Below, piece by piece: positions 29,219 to 48,967 of a stretch of 64,000 bases of DNA (its first letter is position 1; the number at the start of each line of letters is the position of its first letter). The DNA is from Escherichia coli. GTDB taxonomy: Bacteria; Pseudomonadota; Gammaproteobacteria; Enterobacterales; Enterobacteriaceae. The stretch lies in NCBI RefSeq assembly GCF_009931435.1, contig NZ_CP043414.1, one strand, 5' to 3'. The notes beneath the pieces are model-generated. The model saw only the letters and a list, made by a program, of their open reading frames with translations, made no database searches and had not been told where the DNA came from. The position numbers and the translations under genes were made by a program.

Positions 29219-29671
29219 CCATATAACCCGTTATCTCTTTCTCAAGTTTTTATATTAGCTGTACTTGTAATAAGCAACATATCCACATAACACCTCATGT
29301 TCAAAATAGTTCCCCATGCCAGATAAGTTCACAATTATCGATACAAAAAATCAAATTTAATCAAAGTGTTATATGTATAATCCTTAAACCGTTAAGAAAT
29401 TTTAATATATTATTTTTTTAATATTAATTAATGCCTGTTAATTTTTTCTTTAGAATAACAGTGTATTTTTTAAGCTTGTTATTCATTGATTAAGTAATAA
29501 ATCTGGAAGTTTGTCTTTGTTTTGAGGCTAATGAGTGGTTTTACATAACCGCCTCTATACGCTGTTGATGAATAGTTCTTATGAATAAAGATATCCAGTT
29601 CATACTTTAAGTGAAAATTGATAAAGTGCGATTCGTATTGTCTTTTATTCTAAAGACATCGAGTGTAGTTA

Positions 29672-32710: not shown

Positions 32711-32885
32711 AGGTCTCTAGTAATTGCAATAAGAAATAACATGGAAAGCAGGGGGGTTGTGTGAGAGTAGTCACGCTTCTGCTTTTTAAAATTATTTGAT
32801 AATACGAATATCACACTGTGATTACGATCACATTAGCGCTTATGCCCTTATGCTAAAAATTATCTCCAGTTACCAGAGATAATGA

Positions 32886-43135: not shown

Positions 43136-44847
43136 TGAACGAAAAACATCCAGGGCCTTTAGTGGTCGAAGGAAAACTGACAGACGCCGAGCGCATGAAG
43201 CTTGAGAGCAACTACCTGCGCGGGACCATTGCGGAAGATTTAAACGACGGTCTGACCGGCGGCTTTAAGGGCGACAACTTCCTGCTGATCCGTTTCCACG
43301 GTATGTATCAGCAGGATGACCGCGATATCCGCGCCGAACGTGCTGAACAGAAGCTGGAACCGCGTCATGCGATGCTGCTGCGCTGCCGTCTGCCGGGTGG
43401 GGTGATCACCACTAAACAGTGGCAGGCAATTGATAAATTCGCCGGTGAAAACACCATTTATGGCAGCATTCGCCTGACCAACCGCCAGACGTTCCAGTTC
43501 CACGGCATTCTGAAAAAGAACGTCAAACCGGTGCACCAGATGCTGCACTCGGTCGGTCTTGATGCGCTGGCGACCGCCAACGACATGAACCGTAATGTAC
43601 TCTGCACCTCGAACCCATTTGAATCTCAGTTGCACGCGGAAGCGTATGAGTGGGCGAAGAAAATCTCTGAACATCTGCTGCCGCGAACCCGCGCCTATGC
43701 GGAGATCTGGCTCGATCAGGAGAAAGTCGCCACTACTGACGAAGAACCGATCCTCGGTCAGACCTATCTGCCGCGTAAATTCAAAACCACGGTAGTGATC
43801 CCGCCGCAGAACGATATCGATCTGCACGCCAACGACATGAACTTTGTGGCGATCGCGGAAAACGGCAAGCTGGTGGGCTTCAACCTGCTGGTGGGCGGTG
43901 GGCTTTCTATCGAACACGGCAACAAGAAAACCTACGCCCGCACGGCGAGTGAGTTTGGTTATCTGCCGCTGGAGCATACGCTGGCGGTGGCGGAAGCCGT
44001 CGTGACAACTCAGCGCGACTGGGGTAACCGAACCGATCGTAAAAATGCCAAAACCAAATACACGCTGGAGCGCGTGGGGGTCGAGACGTTTAAAGCAGAA
44101 GTGGAACGTCGCGCGGGGATCAAATTTGAGCCGATCCGTCCATATGAATTTACCGGGCGCGGCGATCGTATCGGCTGGGTAAAAGGGATCGACGACAAAT
44201 GGCACCTGACGCTGTTTATCGAAAATGGCCGAATTCTTGATTATCCGGGGCGTCCGCTGAAAACCGGCCTGCTGGAGATCGCGAAGATCCACAAAGGTGA
44301 TTTCCGCATTACGGCGAACCAGAATCTGATCATCGCTGGTGTACCGGAAAGCGAGAAAGCGAAGATTGAGAAGATCGCCAAAGAGAGCGGATTGATGAAT
44401 GCCGTCACGCCGCAGCGCGAAAACTCAATGGCCTGCGTGTCATTCCCGACTTGCCCGTTGGCGATGGCGGAAGCGGAGCGTTTCCTGCCGTCGTTTATCG
44501 ATAACATCGATAATTTAATGGCGAAACATGGTGTCAGCGATGAGCACATCGTGATGCGTGTAACAGGCTGCCCGAACGGTTGTGGTCGCGCGATGCTGGC
44601 GGAAGTTGGCCTGGTGGGTAAAGCGCCGGGTCGCTACAACCTGCATCTTGGTGGCAACCGCATTGGGACACGTATCCCACGGATGCATAAAGAAAACATC
44701 ACCGAGCCGGAAATCCTGGCGACGCTTGATGAACTGATAGGGCGCTGGGCGAAAGAACGTGAAGCGGGTGAAGGCTTCGGCGACTTTACGGTGCGTGCGG
44801 GCATCATTCGCCCGGTGCTCGATCCGGCGCGTGATTTGTGGGATTAA
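43135..44847 (+). CDS. cysI: sulfite reductase hemoprotein beta subunit
   Basis: 570-aa [45 protein letters not shown]... Confidence 0.96.
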
Positions 44848-44920: not shown

Positions 44921-45655
44921 ATGTCCAAACTCGATCTAAATGCCCTGAACGAACTGCCGAAGGTAGATCGCATTCTGGCGCTGGCGGAAACTAACGCCGA
45001 GCTTGAAAAACTGGATGCTGAAGGCCGTGTTGCCTGGGCGCTGGATAATCTGCCCGGTGAATATGTGCTTTCTTCCAGCTTCGGTATCCAGGCGGCGGTT
45101 AGTCTGCATCTGGTGAATCAGATTCGCCCGGATATTCCGGTGATCCTCACCGATACCGGTTATCTGTTTCCGGAAACCTACCGCTTTATTGACGAGTTAA
45201 CGGACAAACTCAAGCTCAACCTGAAAGTGTACCGCGCTACCGAAAGCGCCGCCTGGCAGGAAGCACGCTACGGCAAACTGTGGGAGCAGGGCGTTGAAGG
45301 CATTGAAAAGTACAACGATATCAACAAAGTCGAACCGATGAACCGGGCGCTGAAAGAACTGAACGCACAAACGTGGTTTGCTGGCCTGCGCCGTGAACAA
45401 TCCGGCAGCCGCGCTAATTTACCGGTGTTGGCAATTCAGCGTGGCGTATTTAAAGTGCTGCCGATTATCGACTGGGATAACCGAACTATTTATCAGTATC
45501 TGCAAAAACATGGCCTGAAATATCACCCATTATGGGACGAAGGATATTTATCGGTTGGTGATACCCATACAACCCGTAAATGGGAACCTGGTATGGCGGA
45601 AGAAGAAACGCGTTTCTTTGGCTTAAAAAGGGAATGTGGGCTGCACGAAGGGTAA
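44921..45655 (+). CDS. cysH: phosphoadenosine phosphosulfate (PAPS) reductase
   Basis: ORF track starts 44759; the ATG at 44921 with GAGGAA RBS gives [57 protein letters not shown]..., 244 aa. Confidence 0.95.
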
Positions 45656-45671
45656 ATATTGCCGGATAAAA

Positions 45672-45712
45672 TAAACGCCTCTGTCAGAAATGATGGGGGC
45701 GTTTTTATTTTG
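45672..45712 (+). terminator. cysH terminator-like hairpin
   Basis: AAACGCC...GGCGTTT stem followed by TTATTTT. Confidence 0.5.
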
Positions 45713-45918
45713 CGAGCCGCATTCCGGCATTTAAACATGAATATAGCAGGGGAAATCAACAGTTATAGAATGGCGTCGGGTGCTTGAGGCTGTCTGGCGT
45801 TGAGCATTCGCGAGGTTCCAGATGGACAAAAGCCCCGGGCGATATTTCTATCAACCTGAGGCTCGCGTTCGAACGTAGCAATTCGAATGTTAGTCTCTTC
45901 TTTGCAGGGAGGCAAGAC

Positions 45919-46071
45919 ATGCTGACAAAATATGCCCTTGTGGCAATCATCGTACTGTGTTGTACAGTACTGGGATTCACGCTGATGGTAGGCGACTCGT
46001 TGTGTGAGTTGAGTATCAGAGAACGTGGTATGGAGTTTAAGGCAGTTCTCGCTTACGAACCGAAGAAGTAG
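45919..46071 (+). CDS. Hok/Gef-family type I toxin (hok-like; position corresponds to the K-12 sokX locus)
   Basis: 50-aa [53 protein letters not shown] with GGGAGG RBS; N-terminal TM helix, conserved SLCE and AYE motifs; upstream GCTTGAGGCT element typical of hok mRNA 5' ends. Confidence 0.7.
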
Positions 46072-46139
46072 CCACCACGCGGGGGTAAAACCCCGCGTAT
46101 TGAATTGTGATGGTTTGGTCTCCTGCACCCTTTTTTTCA

Positions 46140-46309
46140 TTTATATTGTTTTTGTGAATATTATGCCTGTGTTTATTATTTATATATATCACAGATGAAA
46201 ATCATTGAATTATTCATAATGTAAATATTTTATTGAACGATATATATCACAGATAATTTTTAATATATGCGTAAATATCCTTTAAGTTTTACTGAAGGAT
46301 AAAAACATT
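46140..46309 (+). promoter_or_regulatory. AT-rich cas3 upstream region with 15-bp direct repeat
   Basis: ATATATATCACAGAT at 46182-46196 and 46240-46254 within a strongly AT-rich tract immediately upstream of the cas3 start. Confidence 0.45.
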
Positions 46310-48967
46310 GTGACTTTCTTTGATTTCTGGGGAAAAACCCGACGTGGCGAGAAAGAGGGTGGCGACGATTATCACCTTCTTTGCTGGCATTCGCTGGATG
46401 TAGCCGCGATAGGCTATTTAATGGTCAAAAACAACTGTTTCGGGCTGGCTGACTATTTTCGTCAATTAGGTTTCGCTGACACGGATCAGGCAGCACAATT
46501 TTTCGCCTGGTTGTTGTGCTGGCACGATACTGGAAAATTTGCCCGCTCATTTCAGCAACTTTACCTGCACCCACAACTCAAGGTTCCGGAAGGCGCAAGA
46601 AAGAATTACGAAAAGATCTCTCATTCAACGCTGGGTTACTGGTTGTGGCATCATTATTTAATTGAATGTGAAGAGTTGCTTCCTTCATCTTCACTCTCTT
46701 TGCGCAAACTTAAACGAGTAATAGATATGTGGATGCCCGTGACGACCGGGCATCATGGTCGGCCTCCTGACCGTATCGATGAACTGGACAACTTTCTGCC
46801 TGAAGACAAAGCTGCCGCACGGGATTTTCTCCTTGAAATCAAGGTACTGTTTCCGCTCATCGAGATCCCTACATTCTGGGATGATGACGAGGGCGTTGAA
46901 CTTATAAAACATTTTTCCTGGTATATCTCTGCAACCGTCGTACTCGCAGACTGGACGGGATCGTCAACGCGGTTTTTTCCACGCGTTGCACAGGCAATGG
47001 ATATTAAAGATTACTGGCAGAAGGCTTTAGTTCAGGCTCAAAACGCATTAACCGTCTTTCCCCCAAAAGCAGAAAGCGCGCCTTTCACTGGAATTAATAC
47101 GCTGTTTCCTTTTATTGAGAACCCAACACCGTTACAGCAAAAGGTGTTGGATCTGGATATCAGCCAGCCAGGACCACAGTTGTTTATTCTGGAAGATGTG
47201 ACTGGCGCAGGTAAAACAGAAGCGGCGCTTATCCTGGCGCACAGGTTGATGTCTGCGGGGAAAGCACAGGGTTTGTTTTTTGGCCTGCCAACAATGGCAA
47301 CGGCCAATGCCATGTACGATAGGCTGGTAAAAACCTGGCTTGCTTTCTATTCGCCACAATCCCGCCCCAGCCTGGTGCTGGCACACAGCGCTCGTTCGCT
47401 AATGGATCGCTTTAACGCATCGCTGTGGTCTGGTGATTTTGTGGGGTCAGAAGAACCGGATGAACAAGCGTTCAGTCAGGGATGTGCGGCCTGGTTTGCT
47501 GACAGTAACAAGAAGGCGTTGCTGGCTGAAATTGGCGTCGGCACGCTGGATCAGGCGATGATGGCGGTGATGCCGTTCAAACATAATAATCTGCGGCTTC
47601 TGGGGCTGAGTAACAAAATCCTGCTAGCCGATGAGATCCACGCCTGTGACGCTTATATGTCGTGCATTCTTGAAGGGCTGATCGAGCGGCAGGCGCGTGG
47701 CGGAAACAGCGTTATTTTGCTTTCTGCTACGTTGTCTCAACAGCAGCGTGACAAACTCGTCGCCGCCTTTGCGCGTGGTGCAGAGGGCCAGCAAGAAGCT
47801 CCGTTGCTGGAAAAAGATGATTATCCCTGGCTGACGCATGTCACGAAATCCGATGTGCATTCGCACCGGGTAGCGACGCGCAAAGACGTTGAGCGCAGCG
47901 TGAGTGTGGGTTGGCTTCATAGCGAACAAGAGTGTATTGCGCGTATCGAATCGGCGGTAAGTCAGGGGAAATGCATCGCCTGGATTCGGAATTCTGTCGA
48001 TGACGCCATCCAGGTTCATCGTCAGCTGCTTGCCCGCGGCGTCATTCCTGCTTCCAGCCTTTCACTTTTTCATAGCCGCTTTGCTTTCAGCGATCGCCAG
48101 CGAATTGAAACGGAGACGCTGGCACGCTTTGGTAAAGAAGACTGTTCACAGCGTGCCGGAAAAGTCCTCATTTGTACTCAGGTCCTGGAGCAGAGCGTCG
48201 ACTGCGACCTGGACGAAATGATTTCCGACCTTGCCCCTGTTGATTTACTGATCCAGCGAGCAGGGCGATTACAGCGACATATCCGCGATATTAATGGTCA
48301 GTTAAAGCGTGACGGTAAAGACGAGCGTCACCCTCCTGTATTGCTGATTCTGGCCCCCGTCTGGAACGACTCTCCGGGTGAAGAATGGTTTGGCTGTGCC
48401 ATGCGTAACAGTGCATTTGTCTATCCCGATCATGGGCGAATCTGGTTGACGCAGCGTGTGCTGCGTGAACAAGGCGCGATTCAGATGCCACACTCAGCCC
48501 GGCTTCTGATTGAATCAGTCTACGGTGAGGACGTGGTAATGCCGGAAGGGTTTGCCCGCAGCGAGCAGGAGCAAGTGGGCAAATACTACTGCGATCGTTC
48601 AATGGCTAATAAGTTTGTGCTGAACTTCAGGCCCGGCTATGCCGCCAATATCAACGATTACCTCCCGGAAAAACTGTCGACACGTCTGGCTGAAGAGTCT
48701 GTTTCCCTGTGGCTGGCTAGCTGTATTGGCGGTGTGGTGAAGCCTTATGCCACCGGTGCACACGCATGGGAAATGAGCGTTGTCAGAGTGCGCCAAAGCT
48801 GGTGGAAAAAACATCGGGATAAGTTTTCTTTACTGGAAGGGGATGCGTTCAGGCAGTGGTGCGTTGAACAGCGGCAAGATCCGGAGATGGCAAACGTGAT
48901 TTTGGTCACCGATGACGAAAGTTGTGGATATTCGGCTACGGAGGGATTGATTGGCAAGGTTGGTTGA
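46310..48967 (+). CDS. cas3: Cas3 HD-nuclease/helicase (type I-E)
   Basis: 885-aa ORF (GTG start, AAGGA RBS); HD motif ...LLCWHDTGKF..., Walker A VTGAGKTEA, DEIH box LLADEIHACD, then helicase C-terminal region. Confidence 0.93.
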   Translation: MTFFDFWGKTRRGEKEGGDDYHLLCWHSLDVAAIGYLMVKNNCFGLADYFRQLGFADTDQAAQFFAWLLCWHDTGKFARSFQQLYLHPQLKVPEGARKNYEKISHSTLGYWLWHHYLIECEELLPSSSLSLRKLKRVIDMWMPVTTGHHGRPPDRIDELDNFLPEDKAAARDFLLEIKVLFPLIEIPTFWDDDEGVELIKHFSWYISATVVLADWTGSSTRFFPRVAQAMDIKDYWQKALVQAQNALTVFPPKAESAPFTGINTLFPFIENPTPLQQKVLDLDISQPGPQLFILEDVTGAGKTEAALILAHRLMSAGKAQGLFFGLPTMATANAMYDRLVKTWLAFYSPQSRPSLVLAHSARSLMDRFNASLWSGDFVGSEEPDEQAFSQGCAAWFADSNKKALLAEIGVGTLDQAMMAVMPFKHNNLRLLGLSNKILLADEIHACDAYMSCILEGLIERQARGGNSVILLSATLSQQQRDKLVAAFARGAEGQQEAPLLEKDDYPWLTHVTKSDVHSHRVATRKDVERSVSVGWLHSEQECIARIESAVSQGKCIAWIRNSVDDAIQVHRQLLARGVIPASSLSLFHSRFAFSDRQRIETETLARFGKEDCSQRAGKVLICTQVLEQSVDCDLDEMISDLAPVDLLIQRAGRLQRHIRDINGQLKRDGKDERHPPVLLILAPVWNDSPGEEWFGCAMRNSAFVYPDHGRIWLTQRVLREQGAIQMPHSARLLIESVYGEDVVMPEGFARSEQEQVGKYYCDRSMANKFVLNFRPGYAANINDYLPEKLSTRLAEESVSLWLASCIGGVVKPYATGAHAWEMSVVRVRQSWWKKHRDKFSLLEGDAFRQWCVEQRQDPEMANVILVTDDESCGYSATEGLIGKVG

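Follow-up and report, generated by a model that had tools for sequence, protein, structure and literature searches.

Does an exact 15-bp direct repeat upstream of a cas3 gene mark a pair of regulatory sites, or is it an accident of one allele? The question is raised by an Escherichia coli stretch of 64,000 nucleotides (64 kb, hereafter the window), in which the order of loci is cysJ-cysI-cysH, a hok/sok-type toxin locus, an AT-rich tract, cas3-cse1-cse2-cas7-cas5-cas6e-cas1-cas2, a CRISPR array, iap and cysD. These cas genes belong to the cas-E1 variant of the E. coli type I-E system in the naming of Almendros et al. (PMC3903273), in which K-12 represents cas-E2; E1 is the more prevalent variant, and functional work has been done essentially on E2 (PMC3903273). 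Among 5426 complete E. coli genomes, 2774 carry an E1-type cas3 upstream region. The sequence-only reading of the locus had suggested that the two copies could be paired regulator sites or duplicated promoter elements, in DNA with the composition of an H-NS-silenced promoter. The analysis given here argues for a different answer, to which we assign a probability of about 0.7: the 15-mers do not form a functional pair, the proximal copy (copy 2) being the edge of a conserved promoter block and the distal copy (copy 1) an accident of a rare allele. Most likely, the locus is an ordinary promoter region of a known kind to which an allele-specific repeat has been added, by coincidence, in a hypervariable AT-rich spacer.

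The tract upstream of cas3 extends from 46138 to 46309 (172 nt; GC 0.20, more exactly 0.198), and it lies, as do hok, cas3 and the elements described within it, on the + strand. It had been described as strongly AT-rich and directly upstream of the cas3 GTG, and both points are borne out: its AT content is 0.80, ranking 40 among the 63,829 windows of 172 nt in the 64 kb, and the GTG at 46310 opens an 885-aa Cas3 ORF in the ORF list (46310–48967). No 172-nt stretch of the window is richer in AT than the one at about 29331–29502, which with 0.83 exceeds the cas3 tract. The left boundary of the tract is formed by the hok/sok-type locus (45778–46130), which comprises the hok coding sequence (45919–46071; a Hok/Gef family protein in the RefSeq annotation), a sok match to RF01794 at 45778–45934 (103 bits, Rfam) and a closure of the hok mRNA in which the 5' GGGUGC (45778–45783) pairs with GCACCC (46125–46130), as predicted by the MFE and the centroid fold alike (z = -2.6). 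Behind this 3' pairing element come seven T in a row, and then the tract begins. Homology to cas-less E. coli stops at about 46136, and in those strains hok abuts iap; the tract, being absent from them, is therefore part of the cas module and not of the hok locus. It is also absent from K-12. Within 45500–46500 the Rfam scan returned only sok and two weak matches upstream, none of them within 46138–46309, and a consensus terminator scan of the region gave no terminators. The tract is likely both an H-NS target and the cas3 promoter region.

The surroundings of the tract vary between strains. The toxin locus of the window is intact: it encodes a 50-aa Hok, and the two ends of its mRNA close on each other. 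Its K-12 homologue, hokX (L011), breaks off immediately behind the ATG, where the E2 cas module joins. In three other E. coli genomes (L002, L004 and L007) an IS4-like element, IS421, takes the place of hok up to the GGGGTAAAACCCCGCG stem-loop; the junction lies next to window-equivalent 46082, the cas3 upstream tract is intact, and the junction sequence in E. albertii is the same as in these IS421-bearing strains. Just after cysH, at 45671–45713, a sub-threshold Rfam match to ctRNA_p42d (30 bits vs a gathering score of 50) covers a GC stem followed by a T run, and in all likelihood represents the terminator of cysH, not a ctRNA.

The repeat itself is real. The 15-mer ATATATATCACAGAT occurs exactly at 46182–46196 and 46240–46254, with 58 bp from start to start, as had been reported; an exact non-overlapping direct repeat of at least 15 nt arose in 1 of 5000 dinucleotide-preserving shuffles of the tract (P ~2e-4), and repeats of at least 12 nt in 1.8% of them. 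The repeat therefore exceeds chance under the local AT-rich composition. No third copy with up to two mismatches is present in the 64-kb window (whole-window shuffles expect 0.02), and a search of the rest of the window for TATCACAGATAA, including the surroundings of cse1 and the CRISPR leader, gave no excess of related copies over chance (seven against 3.2 expected) and none close to another cas promoter. Identity between the copies ends exactly at the boundary of the 15-mer. The spacing of 58 bp corresponds to 5.52 helical turns at 10.5 bp per turn, which places the copies on opposite faces of the helix.

The two copies differ sharply in how they are conserved, as could be followed in alignments of eleven E. 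coli E1 alleles spanning the range of identity (nine at first and two more later) and three other species. Copy 2 (46240–46254) lies at the 5' edge of a conserved block of 71 bp (46239–46309), and its TCACA (46247–46251) is the core of the conserved element. Over this block the window is 0.96–0.97 identical to the other E. coli E1 alleles and 1.00 to Pseudocitrobacter. For the distal tract (46138–46238) the identity to the other alleles is 0.74–0.90, and for the third-codon positions of cas3 it is 0.78–0.82 against the other E. coli E1 alleles. The block (96–100% between alleles) is thus more conserved than the synonymous sites of cas3 (78–84% between alleles), and the distal part that bears copy 1 evolves at least as fast as the third-codon positions. 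Apart from an A-to-G change in its (TA) part in GF4-3 and Escherichia sp. MOD1, copy 2 is invariant in all 9 aligned E. coli E1 alleles and in Pseudocitrobacter, and its TCACA is retained in E. albertii and Intestinirhabdus. The 32 bp from 46239 to 46270 are exact in 991 of the 2774 genomes, with one mismatch in 1774 and more in 9, i.e. this core of copy 2 is kept with at most one mismatch in 2765/2774. Judged from these alignments, the 71-bp block is under purifying selection; recombination rather than selection could partly be responsible for its high identity among E. coli alleles.

In Pseudocitrobacter vendiensis (L012, 2325–2885, compared with window 46082–46640) the 5' end of cas3 has 98% DNA identity to the window, and 96% at third-codon positions; together with the block (100%) it is nearer to the window than are the other E. 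coli E1 alleles (~90%), a closeness that points to recent transfer of the cas module between genera. In an E. coli-like genome (L019, GCA_046506925.1; 1240–1956), copy 2 carries a 5-bp deletion (GATATAGCAGATAAT), GTAAAT is altered and the truncated cas3 encodes 151 aa; promoter and gene appear to decay in parallel.

Copy 1 (46182–46196), on the other hand, occupies a hypervariable position, and it is exact only in the rare allele of the window. Its 60-bp context is identical in 6 of the 5426 complete E. coli genomes, i.e. 6/2774 of those carrying the E1 cas3 upstream region, and the next full-length matches have four mismatches; a figure of 467 genomes at ≥99% identity counts 36-bp partial matches in cas-less strains. 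One of the six genomes with the exact context has a truncated cas3. Seven states of the copy-1 position are found in seven alleles or species: ATATATATCACAGAT in the window, ATATATTTTATAGAT in LHM10-1, ATATATATTACGGAT in GF4-3, ATATATATTACTGAT in RM14516, ATATATATTACAGAT in Escherichia sp. MOD1, TATGAATTTCAAAT with a 3-bp deletion in the O157/O111 majority class (9/15 positions matching) and GATTTGTATTTCAAAT in Pseudocitrobacter (11/16 matching, including the preceding base). The C at 46190 is unique to the window allele, and RM14516, GF4-3, LHM10-1 and Escherichia sp. MOD1 have T; since T stands in every other allele of the same class, C46190 is derived, and this single T-to-C transition turns a 14/15 match into 15/15. 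The nearest allele, LHM10-1, has three clustered differences from the window inside copy 1, two of them private to LHM10-1. None of the other aligned alleles has TCACA in copy 1.

These observations bear directly on the proposal of paired regulator sites or duplicated promoter elements, which is contradicted by an unconserved copy 1 (6/2774) and by a spacing of 5.5 turns. The repeat is not conserved across strains: O157:H7 and O111 have full-length annotated cas3 alleles and lack copy 1. A pair would be expected wherever the promoter is retained, and copy 1 does not follow this pattern; at the level of sequence this is the outcome that the sequence-only reading had itself named as refuting. 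Copy 1 would then have become identical to copy 2 through the T-to-C change at 46190 within fast-evolving, (TA)n-rich DNA.

The function of copy 2 would be that of the block to which it belongs, quite probably the core promoter and 5' UTR or leader of cas3 in cas-E1. The block is proposed to hold, in order, TCACA, a spacer of 19 nt, a -10-like element, a Shine-Dalgarno sequence and the GTG. This proposal draws on comparison with more distant upstream regions, namely those of E. albertii, Intestinirhabdus alba and a cysH-linked lineage (L017/L025). Outgroups are few, a contig scan having given four species and a protein search mostly truncated Cas3 fragments. In ungapped alignments anchored on TCACA, TC(A/G)CA-N19-(G/A)TAAA(T/A) comprises the sole elements of fixed spacing across five lineages, the TC(A/G)CA-N19-(G/A)TAAA distance being the same in E. 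coli E1, E. albertii, Intestinirhabdus and L017/L025. Over the block, identity to E. albertii falls to 54%, and the sequence around the two islands, diverged to 54% or less, is largely scrambled. The downstream island, GTAAATAT at 46271–46278, is the candidate for the -10 region, its (G/A)TAAA(T/A) always following 19 nt past TC(A/G)CA; the hexamer AAATAT (46273–46278), which matches 3/6 consensus -10 positions, together with a G at -14 would form a weak extended -10-like element. Transcription would start near 46285 and give a 25-nt leader containing GAAGGA. This Shine-Dalgarno-like sequence (46294–46299, 10 nt before the GTG) is invariant in 8/9 E. coli E1 alleles and in two other species, and reads AAAGGA in LHM10-1.

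Searches with promoter models add little. A consensus promoter scan gave 2 sites in the region vs 1.9 expected and is uninformative on function, and an approximate sigma-70 PWM placed the block promoter top in no lineage, the top candidates differing by lineage. One such promoter-like sequence, TTGTGA-16-TATTAT at 46152–46179, matches the consensus at 9/12 positions and has its predicted start inside copy 1. By-eye consensus searches of the tract for IHF and Fur sites gave matches at the level of composition only, and both candidates were rejected.

The start codon at the downstream end of the block deserves comment. In alleles with TTT, RefSeq starts E1 cas3 from the ATG that corresponds to 46267, which lies 43 nt ahead of the GTG and gives 899 aa. 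In the window this ATG is out of frame, opening an ORF of 11 codons (46267–46302) that ends at TAA 46300–46302: a fourth T (46287–46290) breaks its frame, and in strain 2013C-4282 RefSeq labels the gene 'frameshifted'. LHM10-1, GF4-3, Pseudocitrobacter and Escherichia sp. MOD1 share the fourth T, and E. albertii has a longer T run; the ATG itself is missing in E. albertii, and in Intestinirhabdus a stop follows directly after it. The N-terminus initiated at the GTG aligns with six other lineages, which start 5–7 residues before the WGK motif. Because the N-termini align across species and the ATG is not kept, the GTG at 46310 is likely the true start of cas3, and the 'frameshift' or pseudogene label is probably an annotation artefact affecting many genomes. 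The 11-codon ORF was also considered as a leader peptide and discarded, its ATG being missing in E. albertii and stopped at once in Intestinirhabdus.

A further element may be recognized around the conserved TCACA. This pentamer is proposed to form the half nearer the promoter in a weak CRP-type site, whose centre would lie about 41.5 bp before the predicted start near 46285. The 16-mer AACGATATATATCACA (46236–46251, centre 46243.5) is the candidate activator site. It was scored with a CRP PWM derived from 107 ChIP-seq sites (PMC4287617, Table 1), and a smaller matrix of 13 sites gave other numbers with a similar ranking. As a positive control, the ChIP-verified sites of ygcW/yqcE, sdaC and cysI rank 1st, 2nd and 6th in the window. 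Three segments of the window (32817–32832, 2156–2171 and 44550–44565) are identical to ChIP-seq CRP sites of ETEC H10407 (PMC4287617, Table 1), namely ygcW/yqcE, sdaC and the site inside cysI upstream of cysH. With this matrix the copy-2 16-mer reaches 8.8 bits in the window (rank 20 of ~64,000 positions; composition-matched P = 0.027), 9.7 bits in O157, 11.2 bits in E. albertii, 10.9 bits in Intestinirhabdus and about 0 in L017/L025, where the spacing is kept with TCGCA and no left half. Scores of 8.8–11.2 bits fall within the lowest 13–28% of the 107 ChIP sites, whose median is 12.9. The left half-site in the window allele is poor (AACGA); the right half-site, TCACA, does not vary among four lineages, and the N6 spacer is TATATA, CGCTCA or GATGGC. 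If transcription starts 7 nt past the hexamer, TCACA occupies -38 to -34 and the 16-mer is centred at -41.5; class II CRP sites have their downstream half at -38 to -34. The arrangement would then be of class II with an extended -10-like element, set within DNA that H-NS probably coats. That CRP is the protein reading the TCACA of copy 2 is a tentative proposal, somewhat doubtful in view of these scores.

Known systems offer likenesses to such a promoter. The galP1 promoter is a class II CRP-dependent promoter with an extended -10 element. As in class II CRP promoters with an extended -10, TCACA here precedes the first base of the -10 candidate by 26 nt, a G is present at -14 and no -35 hexamer is recognisable in the E1 block; unlike them, the E1 candidate has a weak site with a degenerate left half and a poor -10 candidate. 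In K-12, cas3 (E2) shares with E1 cas3 the chromosomal slot between cysH and cas3 and an independent transcription unit, and its promoter likewise has a weak CRP-type site near the gene start in AT-rich surroundings plausible for H-NS. The K-12 cas3 promoter is reported to be CRP-activated via an equally weak site (PMC7019758). It differs in having an unlike 100-bp upstream region, with the site TATGA-N6-TCGAA and no homology to the E1 tract. Salmonella cas3 is an independent, H-NS-silenced unit of an E1-like type I-E system, with a Cas3 62–65% identical over the N-terminal 250 aa; however, it adjoins sopD, and its upstream DNA has no detectable similarity to the tract, none being found in S. 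bongori, S. enterica or S. arizonae. Comparison with published cas3 promoter maps is thus of no help at these coordinates, since the K-12 and Salmonella upstream regions are unrelated to the tract and the maps cannot be transferred. In ETEC H10407 the cysH-cas3 spacer is of the E2 type and cas3 is split by IS66, so that the CRP and H-NS ChIP maps of that strain miss the E1 promoter. The estA2 promoter of ETEC, where ChIP and reporters show H-NS excluding CRP from AT-rich DNA (PMC4287617), is a model for a silent but inducible cas3, with a CRP site inside DNA that H-NS can coat; there the case is experimental, here it is by analogy only.

H-NS also provides the first alternative to the reading of the repeat as a coincidence, in which the 15-mers themselves, rich in TpA and with a narrow minor groove, would be favoured by H-NS for nucleation, or would serve an antagonist such as LeuO, so that duplication strengthens silencing or counter-silencing. 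The composition expected of an H-NS-silenced promoter is present, with 80% AT and 27 TpA steps in the tract. Matches to TCGATAAATT, which we take to be the high-affinity H-NS motif, are dense: seven with up to three mismatches, four times the window average, two of them (46237–46246 and 46250–46259) overlapping both ends of copy 2. Moreover, cas3 is reported to be repressed by H-NS in K-12 (PMC4782391) and in S. Typhi (PMC8039139), and H-NS can prevent CRP from occupying good sites where the DNA is AT-rich (PMC4287617). The upstream regions of the K-12 and S. Typhi genes are non-homologous to the tract, and H-NS repression here therefore stands by analogy only. Enrichment of the motif beyond composition, by contrast, is not seen: shuffled tracts of equal composition carry 5.7 ± 2.4 matches (P = 0.36), nothing marks out the 15-mer, and, copy 1 being unconserved, the E1 promoter does not include a pair of such sites. 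The H-NS-type character suggested in the sequence-only reading is upheld as regards composition, to which the motif count adds nothing. A dedicated role of the 15-mers as H-NS or LeuO sites is accordingly unlikely, whereas general coating of the whole tract by H-NS is likely and compatible with an interpretation of copy 2 as the edge of a promoter block.

A second alternative, rather improbable, concerns the origin of the repeat: it could be what is left of an old tandem duplication, some 58 bp long and carrying promoter elements, or it could stem from a quasi-repeat that underwent templated correction by slipped misalignment between (TA)4 runs, any function being secondary. Several features lend themselves to this view. 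GTAAATAT follows both copies (46221–46228 and 46271–46278), outside the 15-mer the two 58-bp units can be aligned weakly once gaps are allowed (score 21 vs 15.4 ± 2.9 shuffled), divergent alleles keep 9/15 (O157 type) to 11/16 (Pseudocitrobacter) positions at copy 1, and the differences of LHM10-1 cluster at three positions inside copy 1. Identity of 15/15 is, moreover, improbable by composition, so that selection or templated correction in the window allele could be behind it. Against a duplication, however, Tandem Repeats Finder finds nothing in 45900–46500, the alignment of the units is non-significant (P = 0.06), and the offsets from each copy to GTAAATAT differ by 8 bp. As regards correction, one derived substitution suffices in the window lineage, so no conversion event is required.

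The last alternative, that both copies work because the T-to-C change at 46190 created a second CRP-type site (ATTTATATATATCACA, 46178–46193) and with it a tandem, class III-like promoter with altered cas3 expression, is very unlikely: the copy-1 16-mer scores 10.2 bits in the window allele (rank 12 in the window; composition-matched P = 0.014), above the 8.8 of copy 2, CATAAT (46215–46220) is as far from the copy-1 TCACA as AAATAT is from that of copy 2, and an exact repeat is hardly expected from composition alone, but the score at this position falls to -0.5 in RM14516 and -8.5 in O157, the left half-site ATTTA lacks both G residues, the sites lie on opposite faces of the helix, and the allele is confined to six genomes among the 2774 that bear the region, one of them with a broken cas3. 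The fuller picture in which E1 cas3 is under a class II CRP-type promoter in H-NS-bound DNA, convergent with K-12, and the window allele has gained a stronger upstream site, is an equally long shot. If true, the allele would be a natural gain-of-site variant in which the amount of Cas3 nuclease is tuned to carbon status; should the pair matter, it would illustrate on a small scale how a point mutation can add regulation, and the evidence is against it.

The promoter block, rather than the repeat, is thus what the locus offers to further work. In E. coli K-12, the amount of Cas3 available sets the limit to CRISPR interference (PMC4782391). Regulatory work has all been done on the K-12 (E2) variant, and the promoter of the prevalent E1 cas3 is unmapped, no transcription start site, binding data or experimental study of it being found in the literature. 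The useful yield of the comparison is a short set of conserved bases, TCACA at 46247–46251 and GTAAAT at 46271–46276 within the 71-bp block, as first targets for mutation.

One further observation concerns the genes downstream. CRP control has been reported for the casA promoter of K-12. In the window, the third best match to the ChIP-derived CRP matrix (13.3 bits) is CGTGATTTTGGTCACC at 48895–48910, in the 3' end of cas3, with the cse1 start (49013) about 100 bp further downstream, and this site may be the E1 counterpart of that control.
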